Part shown: positions 3,213 to 23,070 of the stretch, piece after piece
Layout: every line of letters begins with the position of its first letter
Numbering within the stretch: the first letter of the stretch is position 1
Assembly: GCA_964492425.1 (NCBI GenBank)
Contig: CAZBKB010000004.1
Location: 24,260 to 82,825 of the forward strand
Direction of reading: 5' to 3'
DNA: 58,566 nucleotides
From: an uncultured Gammaproteobacteria bacterium
GTDB lineage: Bacteria; Patescibacteriota; Microgenomatia; Curtissbacterales; GWA2-41-24
Program-made: the position numbers and the translations under genes
Notes under the pieces: generated by a model
What the model saw: the letters and a program-made list of their open reading frames with translations, nothing else
Databases searched by the model: none
Told to the model about the DNA's origin: nothing

Positions 3213-3216
3213 GTGA

Positions 3217-5380: not shown

Positions 5381-5408
5381 TTTTTTAATTATCTTATTAT
5401 GAAAGTAT

Positions 5409-6356: not shown

Positions 6357-6364
6357 CTCGTAAA

Positions 6365-7864: not shown

Positions 7865-7914
7865 GTTTCAAATTTTATATTACATGGAGAATTATCTTAT
7901 TTGGACAGTTATTA

Positions 7915-9105
7915 TTATTGCTTTTCTTTCCAGATCCAAATTAGATTTACAAAATAGTTGAAGAACAGACCAGTAGCAACACCTACTGCAAGACCTATTT
8001 GTTCATGAAGATTTAAAATATGGGCAAAAAACAAGATTGAAAATAATTGGATTATTGGGCTGCCAATAGAAGTAAGATTAAACTTTGCAAACCTGAGAAA
8101 TGGCGAACCCATGTGAGACCTATCCTTAAATGTCCAGTTATCATGCATTAAAAAATTAAAAATTATGGATAGCTCGATAGAGATGACAGATGCAATAAAT
8201 AATCTATCCAAACTAAAAAATAAAATCTTTGGAGCATTTTCTATTGTGGAAATAAAGTTTAATACTGGCCGGGTTAATACGGGATACGAATAAATAGCCC
8301 CCCTATACAAAAGACCAAGGACAACTGCATTAATTAGGTAGCTAATGCATCCTACCAGCGCAAATTTTATGAAAGTTCTTGATCGTTCAAGGCGAACTTT
8401 AAAGCCAAATTTTATTACATCCAGTGTATAGGCGACAATTTTAGCTTTTGAATACCCTTTTTTTCGATCCTTAAAAGTGATGGGGATTTCTTCAATTTTT
8501 GCTCCCGCTTTTATTGCCGCATATAAAAACGCCGGTTGAATTATATAGGTCTTGGATTTCCAAGGAACCTTTGAGAAATCTATTTTTTCAAACAGTTTTT
8601 TTGTGAATACACGATACGAGTTAGTATATTCTGAAATATTGAATGTGCCCCAGGCTATTTTTGAAAATAGGGCTGACCCTCGGGTAAACAATCTCCTGTG
8701 CCAGCCGAGAAGGTTTTTACCTCCTTTTGTAAGTCGCGAGCCTATGACTAGATCATTACCTTCTATAATCTTTTTTATCATTTGGGGGAGTGTCGATGGA
8801 TCATGAGAAAGGTCACTATCCATTTGTGCCAGCATATCCGCTTTTAGCCTACTTATTGCATAACGATGACCTTTTACTATGCCTATTCCTAAACCCCTCT
8901 CTTTTACATCCAGATAGTGCACTTTTGGATTAGTTTTAGTAATCTTTTTTACAATTTCCCCTGTTTTATCAGGTGAATGGCTATCTGAGACTAACACATG
9001 CAAGTCAATACTGGAAATCTTTTTTGCTTGCTCAAGAACAAGTTTGATTATCTCTTCGACATTTTCTTCCTCATTATAGGTGGGGATATTGACTACCAGC
9101 CTCAT
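7915..9105 (-). CDS. GT2 polyprenyl-phosphate (mannosyl-type) transferase fused to a C-terminal GtrA-like 4-TM domain
   Basis: N-terminal part has [13 protein letters not shown] and [10 protein letters not shown] (DPM1-like). C-terminal part [18 protein letters not shown]...[11 protein letters not shown] matches the GtrA family pattern. ATGA overlap with gmd. Confidence 0.85.
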
Positions 9106-10079
9106 TTGGAATTTTTCTTTAGAAGTTTGACGTCTGCTTCCACCATCACTTTTACCAACTCTTTAAAAGAAACTTTTGGGGTCCAGCCTAAAACTTTTTT
9201 TGCTTTCGATGCATCACCAATTAAAAAATCTACTTCAGCCGGCCGCATAAATTCTTTAGAAATTTTTACGTGTTTTTTCCAATTCTTTTCACCAATAACT
9301 TCAAATGCGACTTTTATAAATTCTTCTACGGAGTGATTTTCACCTGTTGCTATAACATAATCATCGGCTATTTCTTGTTGCAACATGAGCCACATAGCTT
9401 CTACATAATCTCCTGCAAAACCCCAATCACGTTTGGCATCGAGATTGCCTAGAGTTAAATATTCCTGCAAGCCTAATTTAATTCTTGCTACGCCGTGAGA
9501 AATTTTTCTTGTTACAAATTCCAAACCTCGTCTTGGGGATTCGTGATTGAATAATATGCCGGGTACGGCGAATAAATTATAAGACTCTCTGTAATTTATG
9601 GTGATCCAATGAGCATATACTTTTGCCACACCATAAGGACTTCTAGGATGAAAAGTCGTTCTTTCTGTTTGTGGACTCTCTGCTACTTGTCCAAACATTT
9701 CTGATGATGACGCTTGATAAAATCTCGTTTTTGGTTTTACCTGTCTTATTGCTTCAAGCATCCTGGTTGCGCCGAGTGCAGTAAATTCACCTGTTAAAAC
9801 AGGCTGGGACCAAGAAGTTGCCACAAAACTCTGGGCAGCCAAATTGTAAATTTCGTCAGGGTTTGAATATTCAACTGCAGAGGTTAATGATTGTTGATCC
9901 AGGAGATCACCAGGAATAAGTTCTATCTTGTCTTGCATATGTTTTATCCTCTCGTAATTTGGAGTTGATGTACGTCTGGTGAGCCCGAACACTTTGTAAT
10001 TTTTTGCAAGTAAAAACTCAGCTAAATATGAACCATCTTGGCCAGTTATACCTGTTATGAGTGCTTTTTTTTGTGCCAT
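9102..10079 (-). CDS. gmd: GDP-mannose 4,6-dehydratase
   Basis: [24 protein letters not shown]..., [27 protein letters not shown]. Confidence 0.95.
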
Positions 10080-11032
10080 CAGTTTTTTATTTTATCCCTT
10101 TCGTATTCAATTGTATCAAATAATGTTTTTTCTAGAGGTATTGTTGGTTCCCAACCAGTATCTTTTTTAAATTTGGAATAATCACAGTAAATTCGTTGTA
10201 TCTCGACCTTCCTGAATAAACTCCTATCTTGAACTATTTTAACCTCAACACTTGATAGTGAAATTAGTTTAGTAAGTATATCAGCTATTCTAACAGCTTT
10301 TGCTGAACCCAAGTTGTAAACATCACCAACTCTACCTTTATCCAGTGCAAGTAAATAAGCTTTTACAATGTCCCTCACATCTGTGATGTCCCGCCATGTG
10401 TTTAAGTTTCCAACTTTGATTATTCCTTTTCCTATTGTTTCAATTTTTGCTATTTGGGAAGCAAACGCCGGAACTACAAATTTTGTTGATTGACGAGGGC
10501 CTATGTGGTTAAAAGGTCTTACTCGGACAATATTAAGCCCATTGTTTAAAAAGAACTGATACCCCAGCATGTCTTGTGCAACTTTCGATACTGCGTAAGG
10601 CGAGGTTGGTGCGAGTGGTGTGTCTTCATTTACCGGTAAATATTTTTTTTCAACATCTCCATATTCATCAGCAGAACCAACTATTAGAATTTTTACTTTT
10701 GATTTTTGTCTTGCAACTTCCTCAAGTAAATTTATTTGTCCAAATATATTGTTTTTAAGAGTAAGCTGAGGATAGTGAAAACTTTGGGCCGGTGATGAAA
10801 ACGCAGCTAAGTGAAACAGATAATTATAATCTTTGAAATCTATCTTCTTTAAGCTACGTTTTTTCAGAAGGTCAATTTCAATTTTACTAATCTTTTTTGT
10901 AAATTGTTTTAGATTCTCAATTGAGTGTTTGGGATGAATAAGAGTTGTAACTTGAATATTATTTTTATTAAGATACTCTGTAAGATGGCTACCGACGAAA
11001 CCAGCCGCTCCTGTAATAAGCGCTTTTTTCAT
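10079..11032 (-). CDS. rmd: GDP-4-dehydro-6-deoxy-D-mannose reductase (Rmd-like SDR)
   Basis: [50 protein letters not shown] and a C-terminal ...[11 protein letters not shown] closely follow the Pseudomonas Rmd pattern. ATGA overlaps on both sides (gmd, ugd). Confidence 0.75.
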
Positions 11033-12333
11033 CGACCGACGGTAAAATAACTAAAACCGATTTCTTTCATCTTTATAGTGTCATATATATTCCGTCCATC
11101 GATAATAATTGCTCTTTTTAAGCTATTTTTAATCTTTTGTAAGTCCATTCCAAGAAATTCTGGCCACTCAGTTACAATAACAAGTGCGTCTTGGCCTTTC
11201 GCTGCGTCATAAACATCTTTTGCATACTTTTGCTTTGGAAATATCTTTCTTGCTGTATCTATCGCCTTCGGATCATAAAGAGTCAAATCTGCACCTAAAT
11301 TAAGAAGTGACTGGATTATTTTTATAGATGGTGCATCTCTCATGTCATCTGTATTGGGCTTAAATGCGAGACCTAATATTGCTATTTTTATCTTTTCTAA
11401 ATTGGGTGTTATATTGTCGGTTGCCCCAACGGCTGTCCTAATTTTTGTTATAAACTTATCAATCTGACTATTGTTGATTGCATCTACACTTCTTAAAAGA
11501 TCAAAATTATAGTCGAAACTATTGGCTTGTGCTATAAATGCCAACACATCCTTAGGAAGACAAGATCCCCCATAACCAATCCCAGGTTGCAGAAATGAAG
11601 AGCCGATCCTTTTATCTGTACCTATCCCTAGTAGTACTTTCTGAACATCAGCACCTGTTTTTTCACAAATAGTTGCAAGAGCATTTGCATAGGAAATTTT
11701 TGTTGCCAAGAACGCGTTGGAGGCATATTTGATAAGCTGAGCAGAACGCATGTCACAAATGATTCTTTCTCCCGGTAATACTGCATGCAATTCTAATAAA
11801 ATTTTTTGCGCTCTTTTACTTGTAGTTCCAATTACAATACGGTCAGGGTGAAAAGCATCAGTAAGTGCAGTTCCCTCTCTTAGGAATTCCGGTGAAGCAG
11901 CAAATTCGAAATCTACTCGGGCATGTTTTTTTACGATTCTTTCCAAATCGTCTTCAAAACCGATAGGGAAAGTACTTTTTATAACAACAACTGTGTAATC
12001 TTTTAAATTTTTTGCAGTTTCTTCGACAGCACTAAACAGGTAAGTTAAATCTGCCTCGCCATTTTTGGAGGGAGGAGTTCCAACACAAATAAAAACTGCT
12101 TGAGATTTAGGAACTGACTGTGAATACGAGGTTGTGAAGATTAACCTTTTTTCTTTTGCGTTTTTTGATAAGTATTCATATAACCCAGTTTCGAAGAATG
12201 GTATCTTACCTCGTTTGAGTGATTCTATCCTTTCCTTTGAAGTGTCTATACAGTAAACATCGTTTCCTAGCTCTGCAAAGAGAGCTGCTGTAACTAACCC
12301 TACATATCCTGCACCGATTACTGATATTGTCAT
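11029..12333 (-). CDS. ugd: UDP-glucose 6-dehydrogenase
   Basis: ISVIGAGYVGLVTAA, GGSCLPKDV, 434 aa, UDP-glucose/GDP-mannose dehydrogenase family. Confidence 0.85.
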   Translation of the reverse strand: MTISVIGAGYVGLVTAALFAELGNDVYCIDTSKERIESLKRGKIPFFETGLYEYLSKNAKEKRLIFTTSYSQSVPKSQAVFICVGTPPSKNGEADLTYLFSAVEETAKNLKDYTVVVIKSTFPIGFEDDLERIVKKHARVDFEFAASPEFLREGTALTDAFHPDRIVIGTTSKRAQKILLELHAVLPGERIICDMRSAQLIKYASNAFLATKISYANALATICEKTGADVQKVLLGIGTDKRIGSSFLQPGIGYGGSCLPKDVLAFIAQANSFDYNFDLLRSVDAINNSQIDKFITKIRTAVGATDNITPNLEKIKIAILGLAFKPNTDDMRDAPSIKIIQSLLNLGADLTLYDPKAIDTARKIFPKQKYAKDVYDAAKGQDALVIVTEWPEFLGMDLQKIKNSLKRAIIIDGRNIYDTIKMKEIGFSYFTVGR

Positions 12334-12374
12334 TATTTACTGGCTATCCTGATATTTTAGTCAAATAAAAGAAT

Positions 12375-13283
12375 TTAAATCAATTCTCCTTTTTTTTGGG
12401 CAAGTATTATTTCAATACCATTCTCCCAAGATGTTGGCATAAATCCTAACTTCGGTAATTTTTCAACTTTTAAGCCTCCTATTAAGGGTCGGGGTGTGGA
12501 ATTTTCTCTTTTAAGGATTTCTGCAAGAGAAGCATTCGTCAATTTTTTGGGATTTTTACCAAATTTCTTTAATAATTGCTTAGCAAAAACATATGGGGAA
12601 CAACTTTTTAAACTGGCTAAATGGTATATCCCTTTGTTATCTGTTTTCAATAAAGTTTGAATAGCTGGAGCAAGATCATCTATAAATGTTGGAGTTGTCA
12701 ATTGATCAAAAAATAGTGGGTATAAGTTATTTTGCTCATATTTTTCTAATATGCTTCGTACAAAATCTTTTTTATATTTAAATTTTGATCGATACGGGTA
12801 GGTTATTCTTAAAATTATGTAATCATCTATTGTTGTAGCTTCGTCTTCAGAAATTTTTTTCGTTAAACCATACCAGCTAATTTTTTTTTCATCTTGATTG
12901 AATGCCTCAGTTTCAGGATATGGCCCGTTTTGCCCATCAAATACAAAGTCTGTTGAGATCAGGAGTAGTTTTCGCTTACTATGTCTGCAAGCATCGACTA
13001 CGTTTTTCGTACCTTTTACATTTATTTCCCATACAATTCCATGTTTATCGCCTCTTTGTTTTTCTGCCTCATCAACGTCTGTGTAAGCAGAAAAAAGTAT
13101 TACAGTTGAAAATTGATGTTGTTGAAAAAAAGTTTTTACCGAATTGTTATTTGTTATATCTACTGAAATTTTCCCGTCTAAGTCTGCTTTTATTAACTTG
13201 AAATCGTTTTGAAGTTCACAAAAACGGGAACCCACCATGGAGCTTGCACCAATTACAGCTACTTTTTGTTGATTAGTTGCCAA
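12375..13283 (-). CDS. rmlD: dTDP-4-dehydrorhamnose reductase-like SDR
   Basis: VAVIGASSMVGSRF Rossmann motif, YGLTKKISE (YxxxK), about 300 aa, positioned in an rml operon. Apparent TTG start overlaps the rmlC stop. Confidence 0.6.
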   Translation of the reverse strand: MATNQQKVAVIGASSMVGSRFCELQNDFKLIKADLDGKISVDITNNNSVKTFFQQHQFSTVILFSAYTDVDEAEKQRGDKHGIVWEINVKGTKNVVDACRHSKRKLLLISTDFVFDGQNGPYPETEAFNQDEKKISWYGLTKKISEDEATTIDDYIILRITYPYRSKFKYKKDFVRSILEKYEQNNLYPLFFDQLTTPTFIDDLAPAIQTLLKTDNKGIYHLASLKSCSPYVFAKQLLKKFGKNPKKLTNASLAEILKRENSTPRPLIGGLKVEKLPKLGFMPTSWENGIEIILAQKKGELI

Positions 13284-13794
13284 AGTCTTCCCTTACCTTA
13301 TTCCAGTTAAGCTCATTATCATGATTTACTCGGCCTTCATCGTGTGGGTTGTAAAGCTTTGTTGGAAAATTCGCAAGCATCGCGGGTGTTTTTGAAATTA
13401 CCACAAAGCCATGATATGTCTCTTCGGGAATAATAACCATGTACATTTCGTCTTCATTTTCCGGACCCATTGTGAACAAATTTAATTTGCTTTTAGTAAC
13501 AGAGCCTTCTCGAGGGTCAAAAACAGCAGTTACAATTCTGCCAGACACACAGATAAATCTGTCTTTTTGATACCTGTGCACATGCCACTTGTTTTCATCT
13601 CGTGCTACAGATGGAGGTGTTTGCGAAATATATTGCATCTTGAAGGGCATTTCGGAAGTTAAAACGTCTTTCCAATCTTCTCGCAAGGTTTCAACCAATG
13701 TGCCTGTCGGATCTTTATGAAGAGTAAGTTTTCTTAAAATGACACCTTCTATTAACTGTTCAGTGCTTTTTAGATTAAAATAGCTGTAATTCAT
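13273..13794 (-). CDS. rmlC: dTDP-4-dehydrorhamnose 3,5-epimerase-like cupin
   Basis: 173 aa cupin with HVHRYQKDRFICVSGRIVTAVFDPREGS...IIPEETYHGF, located between rmlB and rmlD. Confidence 0.65.
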   Translation of the reverse strand: MNYSYFNLKSTEQLIEGVILRKLTLHKDPTGTLVETLREDWKDVLTSEMPFKMQYISQTPPSVARDENKWHVHRYQKDRFICVSGRIVTAVFDPREGSVTKSKLNLFTMGPENEDEMYMVIIPEETYHGFVVISKTPAMLANFPTKLYNPHDEGRVNHDNELNWNKVREDFGN

Positions 13795-14804
13795 TATTTT
13801 CTTATATATTGTTTGTCGTAATAATCATTAAAGGCTTTGTTTTTAAGTTCTTTCCACCAAGATTTATTATTCTGATACCAGCTGATTGTTAATTTAAGAG
13901 CCTCGTCAAAGGAAAAGTTTGATTCCCAATTTAACTCTTTCTTAATTTTAGCAGCATTTATTGCATATCTCCTATCGTGGCCTGGCCTGTCGCGTACGTA
14001 TTCAATCTTTGTTTCGGGCAGTTTCATAATTTTCAAAATTCTTTTAATAACGCTAATATTGGGAATATCATTATTTACTCCCACACAATAAGTTTCACCG
14101 ACCTTGCCTTTTTGGATTATTGCATCAATTGAGGATGCGTGATCCTCGACATACAACCAGTCGCGTACATAAAGACCATCTCCGTAAACTGGAACATTTT
14201 TGCCTTCAATCAAGTTCGTAATGGTAAGGGAGATTAATTTTTCCGGATACTGATATGGGCCAAAGTTGTTAGAACAATTGCTTATGGTGATCGGCAGTCC
14301 ATATGTTTCAAAATAAGCTCTGACTAAATGATCTGATGCAGCTTTTGTTGCAGAATAAGGGCTATTTGGCTGGTATTTTGTTGTTTCGTCGAATTTTTCC
14401 TTTGAAGTGAGCGCTAATGCACCGAATACTTCGTCTGTAGAGACATGGTGAAACCTTCTTATTTTCTCTTTACGCGCCGCATCTAGAAGAATTTGTGTTC
14501 CCAAAACGTTGGTTAATACAAATGGTGCCGGATCTAGAATCGACCGATCAACATGCGATTCTGCGGCAAAATTTACAAGAACATCAACACCACGAATCAC
14601 CTCACTTACGTCATGTATATTGGCAATATCCCCTTCTTTAAATTTGTAACCGGGTAAATTTTCTACATCTTTTAAACTATCGAGATTGCCAGCATAAGTT
14701 AATTTATCAAAATTGATAATTTCATCACTGGGGTATTTTTTTAACCAGTAGCGAATAAAATTGGAGCCAATAAAACCTGCTCCTCCAGTTATTAGTAGTT
14801 TCAT
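13794..14804 (-). CDS. rmlB: dTDP-glucose 4,6-dehydratase
   Basis: MKLLITGGAGFIGSNF..., STDEVFG, YSATKAASDH. I start it at ATG 14802-14804, which forms a TAATG overlap with the rmlA stop; the 17-codon upstream extension in the track is unlikely. Confidence 0.9.
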   Translation of the reverse strand: MKLLITGGAGFIGSNFIRYWLKKYPSDEIINFDKLTYAGNLDSLKDVENLPGYKFKEGDIANIHDVSEVIRGVDVLVNFAAESHVDRSILDPAPFVLTNVLGTQILLDAARKEKIRRFHHVSTDEVFGALALTSKEKFDETTKYQPNSPYSATKAASDHLVRAYFETYGLPITISNCSNNFGPYQYPEKLISLTITNLIEGKNVPVYGDGLYVRDWLYVEDHASSIDAIIQKGKVGETYCVGVNNDIPNISVIKRILKIMKLPETKIEYVRDRPGHDRRYAINAAKIKKELNWESNFSFDEALKLTISWYQNNKSWWKELKNKAFNDYYDKQYIRK

Positions 14805-15556
14805 TAAAATGTAGTGAGTTCTTTTTCTCTGTCCCCCAAAAGTTTGCGAGCCCAAAACACATTTGAACGGTATAGGCTTTCGAAAGTTCCCGCATCAGAC
14901 CAGAACCCTGAAAGGTTTGCCCATCTTAGTTTACCTTCATTTATGTATAGATTATTGACATCGGTTATCTCTAGTTGTCCTCTGGTTGAAGGTTCAATTT
15001 TTGAACAATAAGAAAATACTTTATTGTCATAAATATATACACCGGTTACTGCTAAATTACTTTTAGGCTTACTCGGTTTTTCTTCAATACCCACAACTTT
15101 TGTATTATCTACATGATCAAGTTCGGCAATCCCAAACCTTTGAGGATCATCTACCTCTTTCAAAAAAATTACCGCTCCGTCTTTGAAATTTTTCACTTCT
15201 TGAGATATATCGGTATCAGTACAATTATCCCCCAATATGACAGTTATGGGTTTTTCGTCTGCAAAGCTTTTGGCAAGTTTCAGCGCATCTGCAATTCCCC
15301 CATCACCTAAGTTTTGGTAAGCATACTCAATGTGTTTTATACCAAAGTCTGTACCATTTTGAAGAACTCTTATAAAGTCGCCAGCGTGTGGACCTCCGAC
15401 TACTATTAAGATTTCGTAAATCCCAGCCTTCGTCAAGGTTTGGATTGGGTAATATATCATTGGTTTGTCATATACGGGCAGGAGATGTTTGTTTGTTGCG
15501 TAGGTTAAGGGGTAAAGGCGGGTACCTAAACCGCCTGCTAGAATTACGCCTTTCAT
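14804..15556 (-). CDS. rmlA: glucose-1-phosphate thymidylyltransferase (short form)
   Basis: MKGVILAGGLGTRLYPLTYATNKHLLPVYDKPMIYYPI..., 250 aa. Confidence 0.85.
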   Translation of the reverse strand: MKGVILAGGLGTRLYPLTYATNKHLLPVYDKPMIYYPIQTLTKAGIYEILIVVGGPHAGDFIRVLQNGTDFGIKHIEYAYQNLGDGGIADALKLAKSFADEKPITVILGDNCTDTDISQEVKNFKDGAVIFLKEVDDPQRFGIAELDHVDNTKVVGIEEKPSKPKSNLAVTGVYIYDNKVFSYCSKIEPSTRGQLEITDVNNLYINEGKLRWANLSGFWSDAGTFESLYRSNVFWARKLLGDREKELTTF

Positions 15557-15600
15557 GATTTACAACAATTATAATATATGATGCTTGTGTTGAGAAAGGT

Positions 15601-16650
15601 TTAAGGGTCAAGCTCACAATTGTTTTCGGATTCTGCCTCGCATTGATCAGTTCCACCATCACCATTGGCTGAATCCCCAAAACCTGTTCCACCAATCAAA
15701 ATATCGTTTTGTCCCCCACCCTTAAGACTATCGTTACCGTCGTCTCCAAAAATTTCGTCTTCTCCTCCATCACCTTTTAGAAAATCATGACTTTCATTTC
15801 CGTGGATTTTGTCATTGTGACCGCCACCCTCAATGTGATCACCGCCGGCTCCGCCAAAGATAGTGTCTTGACCACTGTCGCCTCTGATATTATCCCCACT
15901 CTCTTGTCCTAGGATTACGTCGCTGCCTTCCCCGCCTTTTATAGAATCGCCTCCGGGGCCACCCAGGATACAGTCGTCCCCACCTTTACCGTCAATCGAA
16001 TCACCACCCTCAAAACCCAGAATTAGATCATTGCCAGATGTTCCTTTTAACCGGTCTCCTATTGAGGTTCCAAAAATTGGGCTATTTGAGAACCCGATTT
16101 GTTCACATTCGTCTGGAAGGTCGATAGAGATTCCGATAATGATATCAAAAATCACCTGGGTATTTTGAAAATCATTTCCTGCTTCTTCTTTAAAAATTGC
16201 TTTAAATGTGTAAGTTATAGAAGTCGCCGGGTTAATGTCTGAGAGAAAAATCCCGTTTATCGGATTACCTTCCGTAAAGAAATCCGCAAGAGTTTTAGGA
16301 CCTGACGAACTTGTGCCACCATAAATATCAGTTCCACTTTCGGTGATTACAAAATCAAACGCTTGCGACAAATTAGCACTGTCATTAACTGACGATGACC
16401 TAACACCAACCGGACGGATTCCTGAACCGTTGTTTGTAACGTTAACATCGTGGCTTACCGATTGCCCAGGTACCATACCGGTAACGGTAAAAATCGGGTT
16501 GCCTTCCGGTACACCCCAATCTACTGATAAATCACCAACTGCGTATACTGTAGAGCTGTCAAGTAATTGAGACGTGAATAAATTGACCGCAAACACGATT
16601 GCCAAAACTGAAATTGCTATTTTTATTAATCTTGATTTAAGTTTTTTCAT
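15601..16650 (-). CDS. secreted protein: TasA/camelysin-like N-terminal domain fused to RTX-type Ca-binding repeats
   Basis: Signal peptide MKKLKSRLIKIAISVLAIVFAVNLF. The N-terminal domain (...MVPGQSVSHDVNVTNNGS...TYTFKAIFKEEAGNDFQNTQVIFD) resembles TasA-family beta-sandwich proteins. The C-terminal part carries GGxGxDxxx nonapeptides. Start ATG 16648-16650 lies just after the sipW-like stop. Confidence 0.7.
   Translation of the reverse strand: MKKLKSRLIKIAISVLAIVFAVNLFTSQLLDSSTVYAVGDLSVDWGVPEGNPIFTVTGMVPGQSVSHDVNVTNNGSGIRPVGVRSSSVNDSANLSQAFDFVITESGTDIYGGTSSSGPKTLADFFTEGNPINGIFLSDINPATSITYTFKAIFKEEAGNDFQNTQVIFDIIIGISIDLPDECEQIGFSNSPIFGTSIGDRLKGTSGNDLILGFEGGDSIDGKGGDDCILGGPGGDSIKGGEGSDVILGQESGDNIRGDSGQDTIFGGAGGDHIEGGGHNDKIHGNESHDFLKGDGGEDEIFGDDGNDSLKGGGQNDILIGGTGFGDSANGDGGTDQCEAESENNCELDP
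15649..16044 (-). repeat. about 13 tandem RTX/hemolysin-type nonapeptide repeats (27-nt period) inside the CDS
   Basis: GTSGNDLIL GFEGGDSID GKGGDDCIL GGPGGDSIK GGEGSDVIL GQESGDNIR GDSGQDTIF GGAGGDHIE GGGHNDKIH GNESHDFLK GDGGEDEIF GDDGNDSLK GGGQNDILI. Confidence 0.75.
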
Positions 16651-16651
16651 G

Positions 16652-17953
16652 TTATGGTGCACTGTTTACCGCCTTCGGGGTCGCTGATTCTCCAGCGCCT
16701 ACATCAATATTCGTTTGCGTGGTAGCTGTGTGCCAATTTGTTGAAACTGTACCGTCACCCGGAACAGAATTTCTCTCCATAGATTTTTTGGGTGTCTGGC
16801 CAGGGGGATCGTCACCAAAAAACCAAGCACCGTTGATATTTGCAATATCAATTGTATTTCCTAAATTATTCTTTAGGGTTAATTGCTCTCCATTATTTTG
16901 GAGGCTAACACCGCTTGTTTGAAAGTCTGGTGTTACGCTTATAATAGATGTGGATTCAATATCATTACTAATCAGAAATAAACCATTTGCAGAAATAATA
17001 TGACCTAAAGGGATAGTTATAATCCTTGCCGGTCCACTGCCTTCACCTAGGTTTTCTACAACCCAACTCGAAAGATCGATTGCATTGCCAGTCATATTTC
17101 TTAATTCAATCCACTCGTCTGCACTGTTTCCTTGAGAGCCGGCCCACATAATTTCATTTATGACAACAGACCTTACCTGGACAACCGGTGAGGGGCTTGG
17201 AGAAGGGCTTGGGGTAGGCGTTGGTGTTGGGGAAGAGAAAATTTGTGCCGTTATAAAAGTGTTAGTGAGAGAAGATGCAGAGTCCGAAAAAAATGCGTAG
17301 GAATTATGGAAAAACATTATTCCTAAAACAAATGGGAACAGGACTCGAAGGCTAATGGGGCCTAGCAAAGCTCCTTTTTCTACTTCGAATTGGGGATCTT
17401 CCAAAAGCATTCTTCTGGCCCTCATAATTTTAATTATTTCTTTAACGAGGTTGATAGATTCTATGCCAATTACTAAAAGTGCCGGGATTAAAACCAAAAG
17501 TGCAAAACCTTGTTTGGTTTTTGCAAACGCAAAAAGTTCGCCAGCTTTGGGTATCGTTAATACGGATTTTCCAATGATTAAATCTTCACTAACAAGTTGA
17601 GTATCTGGTGAATTATTAGCGTCTCCTTGGGTTTGATATAAGATTTTGCTATTTGTGACTCGCTTTGAAACAACCCTGTGGGTTGTAACAACATTTGCAT
17701 TTTTGTCACCTTTAAACGCAATTATATCCCCTTCCTTATATTTGCCAATATCTTTTGGGAGGGGGCTATTTATCCCTTTTGCAAGATTGACAACGATTAA
17801 GTCTCCAGCTTTAACTGTTGGTTCCATAGAACCTGAGCGAACAATTAGTGCTTTGTTGCCAAAAATAGGTATGGCGACGTAAGTTAATATTGCCGCGATG
17901 ATAACTAATAAAGTAACCAGCGTATAATTTACAAACTTAAAAAAAGTTTTCAT
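16652..17953 (-). CDS. SipW-like (archaeal/ER-type) signal peptidase I fused to an internal SipW-class signal peptide, PT/SP linker and lamin-tail domain (LTD)
   Basis: N-TM, SGSMEPTVKAGDLIVV (Ser box), TTHRVV, QGDANNSPD, then a C-TM. This is followed by ...LRVLFPFVLGIMFFHNSYAFFSDSASSLTNTFITAQ, then SSPTPTPTPSPSPSPSP, then VVINEIMWAGSQGNSADEWIELRNMTGNAIDLSSWVV (LTD). Start ATG 17951-17953 (MKTFFKF); the 27-codon track extension crosses a hairpin. Confidence 0.8.
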   Translation of the reverse strand: MKTFFKFVNYTLVTLLVIIAAILTYVAIPIFGNKALIVRSGSMEPTVKAGDLIVVNLAKGINSPLPKDIGKYKEGDIIAFKGDKNANVVTTHRVVSKRVTNSKILYQTQGDANNSPDTQLVSEDLIIGKSVLTIPKAGELFAFAKTKQGFALLVLIPALLVIGIESINLVKEIIKIMRARRMLLEDPQFEVEKGALLGPISLRVLFPFVLGIMFFHNSYAFFSDSASSLTNTFITAQIFSSPTPTPTPSPSPSPSPVVQVRSVVINEIMWAGSQGNSADEWIELRNMTGNAIDLSSWVVENLGEGSGPARIITIPLGHIISANGLFLISNDIESTSIISVTPDFQTSGVSLQNNGEQLTLKNNLGNTIDIANINGAWFFGDDPPGQTPKKSMERNSVPGDGTVSTNWHTATTQTNIDVGAGESATPKAVNSAP

Positions 17954-17988
17954 TTTCACAAATATCTGATATAAATCTTGATTGCAGT

Positions 17989-18026
17989 TGGGCGGGAAGC
18001 GAATTAGGACAGGAGCAACCCGCCCA
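17989..18026 (-). promoter_or_regulatory. GC-rich stem-loop between the TasA-like gene and the sipW-like gene (attenuator or RNA-stability hairpin candidate)
   Basis: Perfect 8-bp arms TGGGCGGG (17989-17996) and CCCGCCCA (18019-18026) with a 22-nt loop that contains the AATTAGGACA motif. No U-tract follows on the minus-strand transcript. Confidence 0.4.
18000..18011. repeat. copy 1 of the CGAATTAGGACA motif
   Basis: aagcGAATTAGGACAgg, read on the plus strand. Confidence 0.6.
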
Positions 18027-18079
18027 GTCTGCATCTATTTACGATTTAAAGAGCCTGTCCTTCTCTATGATCACCCCTC

Positions 18080-18703
18080 TTATGGGGTTTGCGTGCCAGT
18101 GAATACGCCGTCAAACTTGACGCTTGAGTTTGCGTACGTATTATCCAAAGAACTCGGTAACGCAACATGCGCGGTGCATTCTGCTTCGTCAGGACCCGAA
18201 CCATCTTCATCACCATCATCTGGCGCTAATGAGCCAAGAACACCTGATCCGGCATCCCAAGCATTTATAGAAGATGGACCACTTGTTGGAAAGGTCGTAT
18301 CTAAAGTACCGTCATCATCAGAGTCGGTTCTGCATGTAAAAGCTACCGTCATTTGATTAGCTATGTCCGCATTTTCAATTGTCACAACATTATCAAATTC
18401 CGCAGTAAGATCTAAACCGATTAATGCTGAGCTGTTGTTTTTCAGCCAGAAAACATAATCTTTTTCAAATCCTGGGAATAAACCTGTTTCGTTTATTGCT
18501 GGTGCTGAAATATCATTTGCATAAGTCCCTGGAGATTCTTCATCAGGTGCTATTTGCAGATCAGCGCTTCCAGTCGAGAAAGTATTTTCTTCACTTGTTG
18601 ACGTATCGCTGAAAAAAGCAAAAGTTGCACCAACTATCAGAGCGGCTGCCGCAGCAATTGACGCAATTGAAAGTGCGATGCGAGAATTTAATGGAAAACC
18701 CAT
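18080..18703 (-). CDS. TasA/camelysin-like secreted protein with a SipW-class signal peptide
   Basis: N-terminus ...IASIAAAAALIVGATFAFFSDTSTSEENTFSTGSADLQI matches the signal peptide plus FxD...NTFxxG signature of SipW-dependent proteins. Strong SD AAGGAGG sits 7 nt upstream of the ATG (plus-strand cctcctt at 18711-18717). Confidence 0.75.
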   Translation of the reverse strand: MGFPLNSRIALSIASIAAAAALIVGATFAFFSDTSTSEENTFSTGSADLQIAPDEESPGTYANDISAPAINETGLFPGFEKDYVFWLKNNSSALIGLDLTAEFDNVVTIENADIANQMTVAFTCRTDSDDDGTLDTTFPTSGPSSINAWDAGSGVLGSLAPDDGDEDGSGPDEAECTAHVALPSSLDNTYANSSVKFDGVFTGTQTP

Positions 18704-18778
18704 ATAACTGCCTCCTTTCTATATAAATTTTGCGCACTGTCAGATTTCTTTGGGAAAAGATGTAGACAAGATTGTATT

Positions 18779-18790
18779 TGTCCTAATTCG
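18779..18790. repeat. copy 2 of the CGAATTAGGACA motif (inverted orientation)
   Basis: Plus strand tgtcctaattcg is the reverse complement of cgaattaggaca. Located in the 271-bp region upstream of the TasA-like gene. Confidence 0.6.
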
Positions 18791-18921
18791 TTTAAGGTCT
18801 CCTTCGCAAAAGCTTCGGACGACCAGGCAGTTTTTTTCGGCATTGATTATCTGGCGAAGTGTTTTTTAAGCAGGCCAAAAATCTATGCAAGCTTATTAAA
18901 AATATTTATGAACATTAAGTC

Positions 18922-18931
18922 AATTAGGACA
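18922..18931. repeat. copy 3 of the AATTAGGACA motif
   Basis: aagtcAATTAGGACAaa on the plus strand. Confidence 0.6.
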
Positions 18932-18974
18932 AAGTGGGTAGAAAAGAGATCAGAAAGGTTTAATGAAATCAGCG

Positions 18975-19394
18975 CTAACGTTGGATAATCTTTCTCATTC
19001 TAGGGGTAGTGACAACTTTTTTACAAGAGTGTAAATTTGAGTCAGGTTTTTTGTGAATAAAGCGGGCTTCTTCTATTTTCTCCTCGAACTTGTATCTAAT
19101 ACGAAGAACGTCATCGTCCATAAATGGGATTGGTTTCGTAGGGTCTATAAGGGCAGGCCTTGCGACTAAATCACCAGTACTTGGATCTTCACCGCAAATA
19201 CCAATATCAAGAACATGTGAAACATCACCTTCGATTTCGACCCGACCAGCGGAGTCTGCAGCATTACATAAGACAATGACAGCAAGGTCTTCGTTTAGGA
19301 AAAACCTCCCTGAGCCGGCCTCGGGTATTTCAAGCGTTTCTATGTGAATTGCTTTTTGTGATTCTCCGAAACAAAATATTCTTTGTTCAACCAT
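18975..19394 (-). CDS. hypothetical cytoplasmic protein with a basic C-terminus
   Basis: ORF with no signal peptide and no family I recognise: MVEQRIFCFGESQKAIHIETLEIPEAGSGRFFL...KKVVTTPRMRKIIQR. Preferred start is ATG 19392-19394, preceded by AAAGG. Confidence 0.4.
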   Translation of the reverse strand: MVEQRIFCFGESQKAIHIETLEIPEAGSGRFFLNEDLAVIVLCNAADSAGRVEIEGDVSHVLDIGICGEDPSTGDLVARPALIDPTKPIPFMDDDVLRIRYKFEEKIEEARFIHKKPDSNLHSCKKVVTTPRMRKIIQR

Positions 19395-19444
19395 TAAAAC
19401 CTTTAAAAAAGTATGCACTAGTTCGCCACATATGCATACCAATT

Positions 19445-19467
19445 AAAAACTGCCCCACTTGGCGCAG
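19445..19467 (-). terminator. intrinsic terminator candidate downstream of the galE-like gene
   Basis: Minus-strand RNA CUGCGCC-AAGU-GGGGCAG followed by UUUUU. The 7-bp stem has one G-G mismatch. Confidence 0.45.
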
Positions 19468-19505
19468 TTATTTTCTGTAATTATAAATAGATACTAGTTT
19501 ATTTA

Positions 19506-21843: not shown

Positions 21844-22190
21844 ATTAAATATGCAGATATATTAGCACCAGAGGCGTCAAATCCCAAGTCTAGAAAGCTT
21901 GCACTTCTTCCTAGCACAAAATGTTGATGGTACTCGTCTGTGACAGCATAAATCAACGTGAGAATGTAAGCACTTGAAAAATTCCTGTTTGTTGACCGAA
22001 AGATTAGTGCATAAAGAACTGCATATTCACTTACATGGGCGATTTTCTTTATGACAAAATCCCAAAAGAAAAATTCGCTGACCTTTACTTGTTTTATAGA
22101 CGAGAATAAAAATATAACTACTGCCCATAAAAAAACAGGCAGCCAAAGGTTTAAAAAATCCGATTTGTTCTTATTGCTCTTTTTGTTCAA
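21801..22190 (-). CDS. VanZ-like membrane protein
   Basis: 4 TM helices, ...IAHVSEYAVL...TDEYHQHFVLGRSASFLDLGFDASG. The start appears to be TTG, so the start is uncertain. Confidence 0.65.
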   Translation of the reverse strand: MNKKSNKNKSDFLNLWLPVFLWAVVIFLFSSIKQVKVSEFFFWDFVIKKIAHVSEYAVLYALIFRSTNRNFSSAYILTLIYAVTDEYHQHFVLGRSASFLDLGFDASGANISAYLIWKLKQIHQRKLKK

Positions 22191-23070
22191 ATTGTTCCCT
22201 TCCCTTTTGAATTTGTAAATGTTGTTGATGTCTTCTTTGCCACAAAAAGCCAGCAGCCGAAAGGCCTATTAAGACTGCACCAGATCCGACAAGAATACCT
22301 GCAACTTGCCTAGAAGCATGTAGGGCTGCAGATGATGGACTTGGAGCAGCAAGTTGATTAGGGTCTAGTTGGGCTATCGAGTTTTCTATTTTGGGAGAAT
22401 TAAGAGCTTCTGGCTGCGGTGAGACTTTTGCTGCTGTTCCTAAAATTTTTGGTGACGGAGTTGGTGTTTTTTTTGAAGAATTTTTGGGAGAACTCTTTGA
22501 TGTTGGTGTTTGTGTTAAAATTTCTGTAGAAGTTTTAGGTATATCTGAGCTATTCGATTCACTAGAGTCGGGTTCTGGCTTAGATGACGTTTGGGTTGTG
22601 AGTTCAATGGCTACTGTATTATCTGAGGAACCAGAACTACTGTTACTATTGCCTGAATATCTCCATGCCTTTATATCGTATATTCCTGGACCTTTATAAT
22701 CCGAATCACTTGTATCAACTTTAATTGTTAGAGTGCCAGACCAATTCCCGCTTTGGGGTTTAAATGAGAATAAGTTTGATTTAATATTTTCCTTGCCAGG
22801 AGAACCATCGTACTGATACCAATTACCATTGTCATTTTTGGTAAAACCGAAGTATCTCTGTTGGTCTTGGCTGGTAAAAGCTGCTTGAAGATAGCATGTA
22901 CCATCTAAACAGCTGTTTGCAGTCAAGCCGGAAATCGAAACATCTATTGTTACTGTATCATTATCTGATTGGGGGTTTGCAAGAGAAAATTCAATTGCAG
23001 CAAAAATTGGTTTCGGCACCAATACGCTGATTGCTGCAAACACCAGAAAAATGGTGGTGATTTTTAACAT
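22171..23070 (-). CDS. surface protein: signal peptide, beta-rich domain, S/T/P-rich linker, C-terminal TM anchor
   Basis: MLKITTIFLVFAAISVLV signal peptide, a low-complexity SSKPEPDSSESNSSDIPKTSTE...SPKNSSKKTPTPSPK linker, and a C-terminal VAGILVGSGAVLIGLSAAGFLWQRRHQQ. No LPXTG motif. Confidence 0.55.
   Translation of the reverse strand: MLKITTIFLVFAAISVLVPKPIFAAIEFSLANPQSDNDTVTIDVSISGLTANSCLDGTCYLQAAFTSQDQQRYFGFTKNDNGNWYQYDGSPGKENIKSNLFSFKPQSGNWSGTLTIKVDTSDSDYKGPGIYDIKAWRYSGNSNSSSGSSDNTVAIELTTQTSSKPEPDSSESNSSDIPKTSTEILTQTPTSKSSPKNSSKKTPTPSPKILGTAAKVSPQPEALNSPKIENSIAQLDPNQLAAPSPSSAALHASRQVAGILVGSGAVLIGLSAAGFLWQRRHQQHLQIQKGREQFEQKEQ

Follow-up and report, generated by a model that had tools for sequence, protein, structure and literature searches.

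The question raised by this locus is what is built by three co-directional genes, here called (i), (ii) and (iii), on the minus strand of a candidate-phyla-radiation bacterium. A preliminary description, which covered part of the window (the whole stretch of 58,566 nucleotides that was analyzed), placed them behind a 271-bp region, as we confirm, and compared them with the tapA-sipW-tasA operon of Bacillus. Our analysis supports this analogy and corrects two points: a further part is fused to the peptidase, and the RTX protein has no donor strand. The reading that we favor, with moderate confidence, is that the operon encodes a secreted TasA-type donor-strand-exchange fiber with its own SipW-type peptidase, and that its three parts have differing roles in polymerization. 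The features are listed in Table 1.

Table 1. Features of the three-gene operon and its upstream region (positions in the window; a slash within a motif marks the cleavage site).
Feature	Position	Strand	Description
Upstream region of gene (i)	18704-18974	-	271 bp; candidate promoter blocks, then a leader of ~175 nt
10-mer TGTCCTAATT, copy 1	18922-18931	-	Overlaps the -35-like hexamer; candidate operator
-35-like TTGACT	18918-18923	-	Conserved; 17-nt spacer to TTTAAT
TTTAAT	18895-18900	-	Conserved; 17 nt from TTGACT
Block GATTTTTGGCCTGC	18870-18883	-	Conserved; kept in L001 and L003
10-mer, copy 2	18779-18788	+	Inverted, GAATTAGGACA on the coding strand; inside the 5′ leader
Shine–Dalgarno AAGGAGG	18711-18717	-	7 nt 5′ of the gene (i) ATG
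Gene (i)	18080-18703	-	TasA/camelysin-family protein, 207 aa, SipW-cognate signal peptide; proposed shaft (elongating) subunit
Signal peptide of (i)	18617-18703	-	Residues 1-29; predicted cleavage TFA/FF
Donor-strand-type segment of (i)	18566-18616	-	Residues 30-46: FFSDTSTSEENTFSTGS
Stem-loop between (i) and (ii)	about 17980-18035	-	GC-rich stem, conserved loop CUCCUGUCCUAAUUCGC
10-mer, copy 3	18002-18011		Within the hairpin loop CUCCUGUCCUAAUUCGC
Gene (ii)	16652-17953	-	433-aa fusion: SipW-type signal peptidase, donor-strand motif, lamin-tail domain
Peptidase part	17402-17953	-	Residues 1-184; helix 1 (2-27), catalytic domain, helix 2 (147-184); helices from the model
Cytoplasmic loop and third helix	17294-17401	-	Positive loop KIMRARR...; short hydrophobic helix ~200-220 ending NSYA; proposed internal signal peptide
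Internal donor-strand-type motif	17237-17293	-	Residues 221-239: FFSDSASSLTNTFITAQIF; pattern A/FFSD..S..N.F
Pro/Thr linker			Residues 240-257 of gene (ii), between internal motif and lamin-tail domain
Lamin-tail domain (Ig-like)	16655-17182	-	Residues 258-433; model confident
Gene (iii)	15601-16650	-	349 aa; signal peptide, VYA/VGDL after A37; TasA-like domain ~38-178; RTX repeats ~190-335; ending C..AE....CEL; proposed terminator/tip

The product of gene (i), whose length and N-terminus are as first described, belongs to the TasA/camelysin family and carries, behind its signal peptide, a conserved segment whose TasA counterpart is the donor strand. It scores 35.1 bits against Pfam PF12389 (cut-off 22.5) and 33.6 bits against TIGR04088 (cut-off 19). 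The PF12389 score needs the signal peptide and the motif, and the mature part alone has no Pfam match. When both are removed, hhalign aligns the mature domain with full-length Peptidase_M73 members (96.7%, E 3.5e-10, 146 columns). The AlphaFold2 model is a beta-sandwich (pLDDT 82.6). The structural comparison with TasA that had been proposed gave no match: Foldseek returned nothing in the PDB below E 0.001, with TasA (5OF1) absent from the top 50, and in a profile search against PDB sequences 5of1 scored no better than E 0.71. Cleavage would take place at the predicted site, where position -1 is A and position -3 is T, S, or A in all 22 family members. The segment behind this site has a conserved pattern with a hydrophobic residue at +2 (F/L/I in 22/22), D at +4 (18/22), N at +11, and F at +13. 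It corresponds to residues 28-38 of TasA, the donor strand of that protein (PMC9674648), and to the rule of an aromatic residue at +2 and an acidic one at +4 in donor strands (AbpX preprint). Residues 27-38 are disordered in the monomer model (pLDDT < 50).

Gene (ii) encodes an archaeal/ER-type (SipW-type) signal peptidase, both by profile and by fold. The SGSMEPT, THRVV, and GDAN boxes are present as reported, and the protein reaches 93.6 bits against TIGR02228, the archaeal-type signal peptidase I (cut-off 51.85). Its score against the bacterial-type TIGR02227 is under the cut-off (38.1 bits, cut-off 47); against the Bacillus SipW equivalog model it is 102.8 bits, below the cut-off of 190. 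The catalytic domain contains S42, H92, D111, and D117; among 48 homologues the last three do not vary, and S42 is kept in at least 90%. The best PDB matches of the model are human SEC11C/SEC11A (7p2q_A, E 8.5e-6; 7p2p_A, E 1.4e-5; both TM 0.60 on target). The start at 18034 of the listed open reading frame (16652-18034) has to be revised, as the homologues begin at the ATG at 17953 (MKTFFKF).

The peptidase, which had been described with an N- and a C-terminal membrane helix, is not a free enzyme. The second of these helices actually lies in the middle of the protein and is followed by 250 further residues; a TapA-like part, consisting of a third helix, a donor-strand-type motif, and a lamin-tail domain, had been overlooked. 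The hydrophobic region of the third helix comprises only ~13 residues and follows a loop with positive charge. Genomes with a split gene encode the lamin-tail domain in a protein of its own, and there this segment is the N-terminal signal peptide. Among 48 fusions, the internal site has A/S/G at -1 in 48 and T/S/A at -3 in 45, followed by D at +4 (44/48), S at +8 (44/48), N at +11 (47/48), and F/L/I at +13 (48/48), the same position-specific pattern as in the gene (i) family. A leave-one-out motif HMM ranks this motif second in the window, behind gene (i) (domain E 0.002). TIGR04088 does not match it, and stand-alone relatives remain under the threshold as well (15.0 and 14.6 bits, cut-off 19). 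The internal site looks like that of a cleavable SipW substrate, and cleavage would occur after A220. In the AlphaFold2 model of the fusion, the motif is disordered and does not dock in the active site. The lamin-tail domain scores 42.5 bits against PF00932 (cut-off 34.3) and resembles lamin Ig-fold structures in Foldseek (TM 0.53-0.71 on target among those below E 0.001).

More than 100 homologues of gene (ii) were found, many of them annotated from Patescibacteria. The fusion occurs in dozens of Patescibacteria protein clusters and is elsewhere split into adjacent genes; the fused and split loci come from Levy-, Roizman-, Gottesman-, Woese-, Ames-, Dojka-, Moran-, and Andersen-bacteria and from WWE3. 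Gene order is conserved across loci, and so are the stop/start coupling of (ii) to (iii) and the presence of a stable hairpin behind gene (i). In one locus (L084), the peptidase retains helix 3, the motif, and a short Pro/Thr tail, and the lamin-tail domain is instead found on the donor-less third protein. What stays constant is the donor-only element. The lamin-tail protein of some Parcubacteria-type loci includes a full TasA-like domain too, so that not every locus follows the donor-only design.

The third protein consists of a TasA-like acceptor domain and RTX repeats behind an ordinary AxA signal peptide, and has no donor strand. It had been described as a secreted protein with a TasA-like N-terminal domain and RTX repeats, and both of these assignments hold: the N-terminal domain aligns with the gene (i) family (hhalign probability 97.3%, E 2.4e-11) and with full-length M73 members (96.8%, E 2.4e-10), and the repeats score 62 bits against PF00353. 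The F-x-D...N-x-F signature that would go with a second TasA is missing. Gene (iii) has no TIGR04088 match, none of 31 aligned homologues has a donor motif, and 37 tip-type N-termini inspected by eye also lack it, all with a classical AxA-type signal peptide. A narrow motif HMM found it in 0 of 33 downstream tip genes; a permissive regular expression matched 1 of 35 third proteins and 37 of 41 upstream genes, at a background of 17%. Gene (iii) is an acceptor-only variant and not a second "TasA." Since both flanking proteins are significantly similar to the camelysin family and the peptidase is of the archaeal type, the proposal that two TasA-superfamily proteins, as major and minor components, flank a dedicated SipW-type peptidase is upheld by profiles and fold, within the limit that Foldseek did not match the TasA crystal structure.

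Several non-coding elements surround gene (i). The upstream blocks are shared with the related loci L001 and L003, although the proteins there are only ~50-60% identical, and TTGACT and TTTAAT would form the promoter. The 10-mer TGTCCTAATT occurs in four exact copies in the window (0.23 expected; four were reached in 0 of 100 shuffles), three of which are grouped around gene (i). Copy 2, conserved in L001 and present with two mismatches in L003, is complementary to the loop of the hairpin 3′ of gene (i). The Shine–Dalgarno sequence AAGGAGG previously noted for gene (i) is present; among six occurrences in the window (7.3 expected), it is by our own reading the only minus-strand copy directly before a start codon. 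The GC-rich hairpin between (i) and (ii) is real as well. At -27.7 kcal/mol in 60 nt, its local fold is more stable than any other in the intergenic regions of the window (runner-up -23.7), and the fold of the surrounding 141-nt region is just 1.3 sd better than shuffles. Its loop does not vary among the window, L001, L003, and L085, its stem has a compensatory change in L001 (G-C to A-U), and strong stem-loops stand at the equivalent position in 9 of 9 other loci examined. There is no T-run downstream and the hairpin is therefore not a canonical intrinsic terminator. The ATG of gene (iii) lies 1 nt past the stop codon of gene (ii).

Taken together, a polar fiber may be proposed. The peptidase would cut protein (i) after A29 and would also, in cis or in trans, release its own C-terminal part by a cut after A220. 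The released piece, with donor strand, linker, and lamin-tail domain, would act as a starter like Bacillus TapA, the N-terminus of which supplies the first strand (PMC10151520); insertion of its strand into the first shaft subunit would start polymerization. Shaft subunits (i) would then join by strand exchange. Their overproduction would be due to the strong ribosome-binding site and to the stable hairpin separating gene (i) from the weakly initiated, stop/start-coupled (ii)-(iii). Protein (iii) would accept a strand and, having none to donate, would end the fiber, thereby placing a calcium-binding RTX beta-roll at its end. The fiber would accordingly run from a donor-only starter over the shaft to an acceptor-only terminator or tip.

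Other explanations of gene (ii) and of the shared motif have to be weighed against this model. The long reading frame could be an artefact, in which a lost stop codon or an assembly error joined a peptidase gene to a lamin-tail-domain gene. The two parts are indeed separate, adjacent reading frames in 27 of 47 peptidase-bearing loci, but they are continuous in 18 of them, from various assemblies and lineages (the count includes one duplicate of L001), and full length in ~45 of the best 150 clusters at 50% identity, with conserved residues at the junction. These recurring fusions refute an artefact for practical purposes, and we give it hardly any credence. Alternatively, helix 3 could stay uncleaved as a membrane anchor. 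The peptidase-linked donor strand would then remain on the surface of the membrane, enter the first shaft subunit and tether the fiber to the cell, with the lamin-tail domain alongside, one polypeptide being both enzyme and anchor, comparable to archaeal Tafi TafF, where a membrane helix is followed by a beta-sandwich domain (PMC12337348). Residues 200-223 are predicted to be helical in the model, a piece cut from (ii) would have no evident cell-wall anchor, and TapA co-localizes with the membrane and has been proposed to associate with SipW (PMC10151520). The shortness of the hydrophobic stretch, its equivalence to an ordinary N-terminal signal peptide in split genomes, and positions -1 and -3 that resemble those of true substrates speak against an anchor, which we consider unlikely.

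A further explanation dispenses with a fiber. The peptidase would merely mature camelysin-like, lamin-tail-domain, and RTX proteins that act separately as adhesins, enzymes, or S-layer-like proteins, and the shared N-terminal motif would be just its recognition element. In its first definition (TIGR04088) the motif is a "SipW-cognate signal peptide," PF12389 was historically named a camelysin metallo-endopeptidase, and Foldseek gave no structural match to TasA fibers, all of which suit this idea. However, the motif sits past the cleavage site and is therefore retained on the mature protein; in the shaft family it fits the published donor-strand rules at +2 and +4, and the equivalent segment of TasA is a donor strand. 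A recognition role also leaves unexplained why the motif is lost in 34 of 35 third TasA-like proteins despite a retained acceptor domain. Overall, we judge this explanation to be quite improbable, and the donor-strand-exchange fiber remains our preferred reading.

The comparison with B. subtilis tapA-sipW-tasA is close in several respects. Both have a dedicated ER/archaeal-type signal peptidase linked to TasA-family substrates, a conserved post-cleavage N-terminal segment that is a donor strand in TasA, and one major subunit with low-level accessory proteins. In both, one accessory part combines a donor-strand-like N-terminus with a complete Ig-like domain; it is tightly coupled to the peptidase, by overlapping stop and start codons in Bacillus (PMC10151520) and by covalent fusion here. 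The order differs (a tasA-like gene, sipW fused to the TapA-like part, a cap), as does the peptidase, with its three helices and its fusion to the presumed substrate; for the TapA analogue, which contains a lamin-tail domain, no sequence relation to TapA was detected. We know of no Bacillus counterpart of the donor-less third protein with RTX repeats. The camelysin pili operon of B. cereus, sipW-calY1-bc1280-calY2, likewise combines SipW with two TasA/camelysin paralogues, but both CalY proteins carry the cognate motif, a peptidase fusion and lamin-tail or RTX domains are absent, and there is a separate chaperone-like factor, BC1280. One CalY paralogue is thought to fill the role of TapA there (PMC10151520).

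Chaperone-usher pili (Fim, Pap) offer a working analogy for polar donor-strand-exchange assembly, with a tip that has an acceptor groove and no donor extension. In the pap operon, a stem-loop follows the major-subunit gene and is linked to a large excess of major over minor subunits. The proteins are unrelated to ours, however, and chaperone, usher, and outer membrane are absent here. Archaeal TasA-superfamily and strand-donation pili (Tafi, with TafD/TafG, TafA/E, tip TafC, and anchor TafF; AbpA/AbpB; AbpX loci) are similarly multi-component, with an adjoining signal peptidase I, which is TafD in Tafi (PMC12337348). TasA-superfamily loci contain a signal peptidase, tip, and minor components (AbpX preprint), and the archaeal pili have distinct major, minor, tip, and anchor proteins with varying tip domains (PMC12337348; AbpX preprint; PMC9245690). 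The present system differs in its lineage, Patescibacteria, in Sec-type instead of Tat-type secretion, and in the fusion of the peptidase to a structural part; neither the ten helices of the AbpX-linked peptidase nor a helper such as TafG is seen.

The preliminary description took such a module to be functionally undescribed in the candidate phyla radiation. PF12389 TasA homologues in Patescibacteria had already been noted, whereas the module itself was not analyzed there (PMC9245690). Our literature search found no paper on this layout, with a peptidase fused to a presumed starter and a cap-like third protein. It is a variant of a known fiber system in a candidate-phyla-radiation bacterium, and an episymbiotic cell would probably use the fiber for surface attachment or to form a matrix.

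The minus-strand span 15601-18974 of the window holds three genes, referred to as (i), (ii) and (iii), whose features are collected in the table. That these genes link TasA-family proteins to a dedicated SipW-type signal peptidase is regarded as highly probable. Related loci from genome and metagenome scans are numbered with an L, homologous proteins with a P.

Features of the fibre module and its surroundings (positions in the window unless a locus is named)
Feature	Position	Strand	Details
Spacer between gene (i) and the previous ORF	18704-18974	-	271 bp
Conserved non-coding blocks	18870-18923; L001 4981-4994; L003 5080-5093	- (window)	AATTGACTTAAT, AGATTTTTGGCCTGC
Copies of the 10-mer TGTCCTAATT	18922-18931(-), 18779-18788(+), 18002-18011(-), 11434-11443(+)		four copies
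Shine-Dalgarno sequence of gene (i)	18711-18717	-	AAGGAGG, 7 nt 5' of the ATG
Gene (i)	18080-18703	-	207 aa; N-terminus MGFPLNSRIALSIASIAAAAALIVGATFAFFSDTSTSEENTFSTGSADLQI
Stem-loop between genes (i) and (ii)	~17980-18035	-	GCAGACUGGGCGGGUUG-CUCCUGUCCUAAUUCGC-UUCCCGCCCAACUGC
Gene (ii)	16652-18034 (ORF as listed); start ATG 17953	-	433 aa; begins MKTFFKF
Positively charged loop of gene (ii)	after the second helix		KIMRARRML...
Third hydrophobic helix of gene (ii)	residues ~200-220		short; ends NSYA
Donor-strand-like segment of gene (ii)	directly after the third helix		FFSDSASSLTNTFITAQIF
Pro/Thr linker, then lamin-tail domain of gene (ii)	C-terminal end		PF00932
Gene (iii)	15601-16650	-	349 aa; ATG 1 nt after the gene (ii) stop

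Gene (i), the proposed shaft gene, is assigned by profile to the TasA/camelysin family. The full-length protein matches Pfam PF12389 (Peptidase_M73/camelysin) over residues 6-137 with 35.1 bits (cut-off 22.5), a score that comes mainly from the N-terminus, since Pfam finds nothing in residues 47-207, the mature part on its own. AlphaFold2 models the protein with confidence as a beta-sandwich (pLDDT 82.6), with low order in the signal helix and in residues 27-38. When this model was compared with the PDB using Foldseek, no match below E 0.001 was found and TasA (5OF1) was outside the top 50; the weak matches were to a mixture of beta-sandwiches (lectins, carbohydrate-binding modules, the CFA/I and CS20 pilins and CanA). 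A sequence-profile search of the PDB reached 5of1_A only at E 0.71. Because TasA was not retrieved structurally, profile-profile comparison was relied on instead. With the signal peptide and motif cut from both sides, hhalign of the gene (i) homologues against six M73 proteins (four with a match along the entire Pfam profile) gave 96.7% (E 3.5e-10) over 146 columns, i.e., the whole domain. The N-terminus was compared separately with TIGR04088, the model of the SipW-dependent-type signal peptide, and scores 33.6 bits (cut-off 19), the outcome that the preliminary description had anticipated from a SipW-cognate model. Donor strands of the TasA superfamily are aromatic at +2 and acidic at +4 (AbpX preprint), and the mature gene (i) protein has F and D at these positions. 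Within its family, +2 is F, L or I in all 22 members and +4 is D in 18 of them. The Shine-Dalgarno sequence attributed to gene (i) is indeed present. With 6 copies vs 7.3 expected, AAGGAGG as a string is no rarity in the window, and in our reading of the window the copy of gene (i) is the sole minus-strand one that directly precedes a start codon.

The N-terminal half of gene (ii) is, by profile and modelled fold, predicted to be an archaeal/ER-type signal peptidase. The ATG at 17953 is the start in all homologues. The protein scores 93.6 bits on the archaeal-type signal peptidase I model TIGR02228 (cut-off 51.85), vs 38.1 bits on the bacterial-type TIGR02227, which is under the cut-off of 47, and 22.9 bits on the LepB model PRK10861. 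The top Foldseek matches are human SEC11C (7p2q_A, E 8.5e-6) and SEC11A (7p2p_A, E 1.4e-5), each with a TM score of 0.60 on the target, and the bacterial SpsB and LepB rank below them. All 48 homologues compared keep H92, D111 and D117, and the conservation of S42 is 90% or more; by analogy with SipW and Sec11, these four residues are taken to be catalytic (Ser-His(-Asp) instead of Ser-Lys). On the equivalog model of Bacillus SipW, NF046067, the protein reaches 102.8 bits, under the cut-off of 190, so that by sequence it is classed as a SipW-type peptidase, yet not as an equivalog of Bacillus SipW. The 58.6-kb window contains no second S26-type box and no further match to the peptidase profile. 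The preliminary description had proposed an enzyme of the archaeal/ER type and had named, as evidence against its module, a grouping with LepB-type enzymes together with the lack of any other signal peptidase in the genome; profile and fold both place the enzyme on the archaeal/ER side. What had been overlooked is the fusion of this peptidase to a third helix, a donor-like segment, a Pro/Thr linker and a lamin-tail domain. In a Roizmanbacteria locus (L078) a second, weak match to the peptidase profile (2e-07) lies at 7556-8230, approximately 350 nt 3' of the gene equivalent to (iii); it may be a LepB-type or second S26 enzyme.

Bacillus SipW has about 190 aa and two membrane helices, whereas three helices are predicted in the 433 aa of gene (ii), the second one at residues 147-184, and a lamin-tail domain follows. 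This domain scores 42.5 bits on PF00932 (cut-off 34.3), and Foldseek matches it to the Ig-fold of lamin A/C and B1 (TM 0.53-0.71 on the target, E < 0.001). The segment FFSDSASSLTNTF within gene (ii) corresponds, position by position, to FFSDTSTSEENTF of the gene (i) N-terminus. Among 48 fusion homologues, the putative cleavage site has A, S or G at -1 in every case and T, S or A at -3 in 45; in the motif behind it, +2 is F, Y or L (45/48), +4 is D (44/48), +8 is S (44/48), +11 is N (47/48) and +13 is F, L or I (48/48). The same pattern is repeated in the 22 gene (i) family members. A leave-one-out motif HMM, made from the gene (i) homologues minus the window protein, was run over 322 ORF segments of the window and placed the internal segment of gene (ii) second after gene (i) itself (domain E 0.002). 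TIGR04088 does not match residues 190-433 of gene (ii), and two relatives that stand alone, P0035 (15.0 bits) and P0099 (14.6 bits), stay under its cut-off of 19.

The fused form is widespread, with more than 100 homologues found. Of the 150 best-ranking cluster representatives (50% identity), approximately 45 match gene (ii) continuously over the full length. A scan that took one genome from each species gave 47 peptidase-bearing loci; 18 of these are fused, and in 27 the lamin-tail protein is encoded by a separate gene that lies directly 3' of, or overlaps, the peptidase gene. An assembly artefact as the origin of the fusion is ruled out by these 18 loci and by the continuous cluster representatives. 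In the split loci, the third helix and the motif form the N-terminal signal peptide of the lamin-tail protein. The query of the scan was a 12-sequence alignment, and many of the loci it returned encode lamin-tail-only proteins, because its patterns were derived from the lamin-tail domain. According to the record titles, module loci occur in Levy-, Roizman-, Gottesman-, Woese-, Ames-, Dojka-, Moran- and Andersen-bacteria and in WWE3. A Patescibacteria-type module is also carried by records titled uncultured Gammaproteobacteria, Cytophagia or Pseudomonadales (L004, L006, L007, L012, L016-L018, L022, L024 and others), titles that, from gene content and closest relatives, look like mislabelled taxonomy. 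Very large proteins are also common, with up to 17 lamin-tail-like stretches and reaching 6922 aa (L021, L024, L032, L035-L038, L040, L042, L051, L056, L060, L064 and L065; also P0215, P0216, P0230 and P0266), from records titled Kerfeld-, Berkel- and Falkow-bacteria as well as Elusimicrobiota, Latescibacterota and KSB1; no peptidase is linked to them within the stretch fetched.

In the proposed mechanism, the peptidase would cut the gene (i) protein after A29 and its own C-terminal part after A220, and the donor-only piece released in this way would start the polymerization of gene (i). The main alternative is that helix 3 of gene (ii) stays uncut and that the peptidase polypeptide itself anchors the fibre. 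The AlphaFold2 model of the fusion has the internal site disordered and not docked in the active site. The conserved small residues at -1 and -3 of the fusion homologues, the recurrence of the same pattern in the gene (i) family and the position of the helix and motif as a signal peptide in the split loci stand on the side of cleavage. With moderate confidence, the internal site is considered a cleaved, substrate-like element.

Gene (iii), the proposed tip gene, follows gene (ii) closely; the equivalents in L001 and L003 share 4 nt. The RTX nonapeptide repeats ascribed to its product, of the calcium-binding type, are there (PF00353, 62 bits, 4 stretches) and are kept in most homologues. Neither the full-length protein nor its N-domain (38-190) matches PF12389 directly. 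With hhalign, the N-domain matches the M73 proteins at 96.8% (E 2.4e-10, 113 columns) and the gene (i) family at 97.3% (E 2.4e-11). The TasA/camelysin similarity on which the preliminary description depended is thereby found by profile comparison in the products of both gene (i) and gene (iii). For the third protein only the domain homology held up; the donor signature is missing. TIGR04088 gives no match to it at E up to 10. Across 31 aligned homologues, the signal peptide terminates in an AxA site of the classical kind, with TAxA|VGDL as the consensus; the mature proteins begin at the strand equivalent to G-x-x-D-L of gene (i), and the F-S-D...N-x-F donor segment is absent. All 37 tip-type proteins of distant lineages that were read by eye likewise have an AxA-type signal peptide and lack the donor segment. 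A narrow motif HMM, which passed over many variant motifs obvious to the eye, detected the motif in 0/33 downstream tip genes; a permissive regular expression with a background of 17% detected it in 1/35 tip genes vs 37/41 genes upstream of the peptidase. A type I-secreted, RTX toxin-like protein was considered as well and was rejected on the basis of the N-terminal Sec-type signal peptide with its AxA site; scores on RTX toxin and serralysin models are far under the cut-offs, and the survey for transporter genes covered the immediate neighbours.

The C-terminal part of the tip proteins varies, with RTX repeats in 12, a lamin-tail domain in 4 and other sequences in 18. An instructive variant is L084: its shaft gene has the motif, nothing beyond helix 3, the motif and a short Pro/Thr tail follows the peptidase, and the lamin-tail domain is on the donor-less third protein. 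Because of this variant, the constant parts are taken to be a donor-plus-acceptor protein, a donor-only element tied to the peptidase and an acceptor-only protein, and the lamin-tail and RTX domains would decorate one fibre end or the other. The scheme has further variants: a full TasA-like domain is additionally present on the middle protein of some Parcubacteria-type loci.

Protein (iii), able to accept a strand and unable to donate one, would end the fibre and carry the RTX beta-roll. A major shaft subunit with two minor components fits with the strong ribosome-binding site of gene (i), with the conserved hairpin 3' of it and with the coupled, weakly initiated genes (ii) and (iii). The full scheme of initiator, shaft and terminator is a plausible, still tentative proposal; a role of the fibre in host attachment is speculative.

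The 271-bp region upstream of gene (i) and the hairpin behind it had both been pointed out before, and both are borne out. The hairpin, at -27.7 kcal/mol in 60 nt, is the strongest local fold among the intergenic regions of the window; the next-best value, -23.7, is common to two regions, one of which contains a tRNA gene. A hairpin follows the shaft gene in 9/9 further loci; L001 shows a compensatory G-C to A-U change, and close relatives share an invariant loop. An intrinsic terminator was rejected, as there is no T-run/U-run and the consensus scan missed the structure. Rfam has no family at E up to 1 in window 15400-19500. A metagenome scan with the 17-nt hairpin loop returned 17 contigs, of which L085 has a new hairpin sequence and carries the module, and L093 is a duplicate of L001; the remaining contigs, which include two more duplicate pairs, have no peptidase or fibre-gene match and are, by our estimate, chance matches in a very large collection.

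The 10-mer TGTCCTAATT is present in 4 copies in the window vs 0.23 expected, a number reached in 0/100 shuffles. Three copies surround gene (i): the first overlaps a -35-like hexamer, the second lies inverted within the leader, and the third is part of the 3' hairpin loop. These positions recur in L001 and L003, and the leader copy is complementary to the hairpin loop over 11 nt. The copies could be operator sites of one regulator, for which SinR at tapA offers a likeness, or they could form an RNA-RNA contact bracketing the shaft gene. Conservation of the non-coding blocks AATTGACTTAAT and AGATTTTTGGCCTGC between loci with a protein identity of only 50-60% suggests a promoter (TTGACT, 17 nt, TTTAAT) and the conserved start of a leader of approximately 175 nt. 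The leader of L001 and L003 has a short hairpin, ACCGC-loop-GCGG, followed by TTTTTTT; the corresponding hairpin of the window is weaker (GACAA...TTGTC). Sequestration of the Shine-Dalgarno sequence by the leader is predicted in the window and was discarded, as the aligned L001 sequence, examined by eye, does not keep the pairing. A 51-aa leader ORF of the window (18688-18843, minus strand) overlaps the start of gene (i), and at the equivalent place in L002 (5026-5184) a 52-aa gene is called in the JGI record. Both start with M..K/N-TAWS and have ...LNELGQ or LKELGQ in common, a similarity that may only reflect the conserved DNA blocks.

The gene order M73 protein, peptidase-LTD (lamin-tail domain) fusion and RTX protein is common to the window, the 722-kb groundwater contig L001 and L003, so that the synteny in related genomes that had been suggested as a check is found. 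The neighbouring genes are in the same order there too, with rmlA/B/C/D-like genes, a UDP-glucose dehydrogenase gene and epimerase genes 3' of the module, and an epimerase gene, t6A genes (TsaB-like, Sua5, TsaE), a VanZ-like gene and a PcsB-like M23 peptidase gene 5' of it. In the window, the 3' side (539-15556, minus strand) comprises a dTDP-rhamnose-type set (NTP-transferase, dehydratase, epimerase, reductase), then UDP-glucose dehydrogenase-like and epimerase genes, and long ORFs; the set lies directly 3' of the fibre module, a linkage conserved in L001 and L003. Glycosylation of the Pro/Thr linker in the lamin-tail part is a guess. The 299-aa product of 22171-23070 (minus strand), next to the VanZ-like gene, carries a signal peptide at the N-terminus and a membrane helix at the C-terminus, and its middle is rich in Ser, Thr and Pro. 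A lamin-tail domain is encoded at the equivalent position of L001 (800-1681); the window protein was rejected as a second lamin-tail protein, since neither Pfam nor our own lamin-tail profile finds the domain. The 155-aa ORF 5' of the module (18975-19442, minus strand) has no Pfam match, and its position is taken by a NUDIX hydrolase in L001 and by an unassigned 139-aa ORF in L003.

In TasA fibres, the mature N-terminal residues 28-38 insert into the next subunit, and a subunit extends its own strand only after being complemented itself; the N-terminus of TapA resembles a donor strand and was proposed as the source of the first strand (PMC9674648). The Ig fold of TapA is complete and the protein acts at initiation; the overlap of tapA with sipW has been taken as a hint of association (PMC10151520). 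Loci of the TasA superfamily often hold a signal peptidase, a tip and minor components (AbpX preprint). The archaeal Tafi loci have the peptidase TafD, the tip TafC and the anchor TafF (PMC12337348). PF12389 proteins in Patescibacteria were noted earlier (PMC9245690). The module of the window would work like the tapA-sipW-tasA system of Bacillus and the archaeal peptidase-linked strand-donation pili. No TapA-named family is among the Pfam and NCBIfam matches of gene (ii) or its C-terminal part, and the likeness is functional and architectural only, consisting of a donor-like N-terminus and a complete Ig-like domain; by these matches, this part would be an analogue of TapA and no homologue. A literature search found nothing on a peptidase-lamin-tail fusion, a donor-less TasA paralog or such a module in the CPR.

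Joined into one picture, the elements could form a minimal, chaperone-free three-gene fibre system, a reading that is possible and rather doubtful. It would consist of a self-processing peptidase polyprotein supplying one initiator per enzyme, a shaft of donor-plus-acceptor subunits and a donor-less terminator tipped with RTX repeats or a lamin-tail domain. The fibres on the surface of these ultra-small episymbionts would be polar, with a length set by the ratio of shaft to terminator, and they might serve as a host-attachment organelle; through the shared TGTCCTAATT, a dedicated regulator or an RNA-RNA contact would control shaft gene expression.

Patescibacteria (CPR) are mostly uncultured, tiny, host-attached cells, and apart from type IV pili little is known about the organelles on their surface. 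The module represents a compact operon for a putative second, TasA-type fibre that is conserved across many CPR lineages, and it offers candidates for attachment or matrix structures. The existence of fused and split peptidase/donor-only forms supports, as a 'Rosetta stone' argument, that SipW-type peptidases act with a TapA-like initiator, a partnership that in Bacillus is only hinted at by overlapping genes. We know of no described counterpart of the donor-less third subunit in bacterial TasA systems; it predicts a terminator or tip. Altogether, the module is a natural experiment on the start and stop of donor-strand fibres, and the labels 'signal peptidase I' and 'hypothetical protein' in many metagenome-assembled genomes could become more precise.
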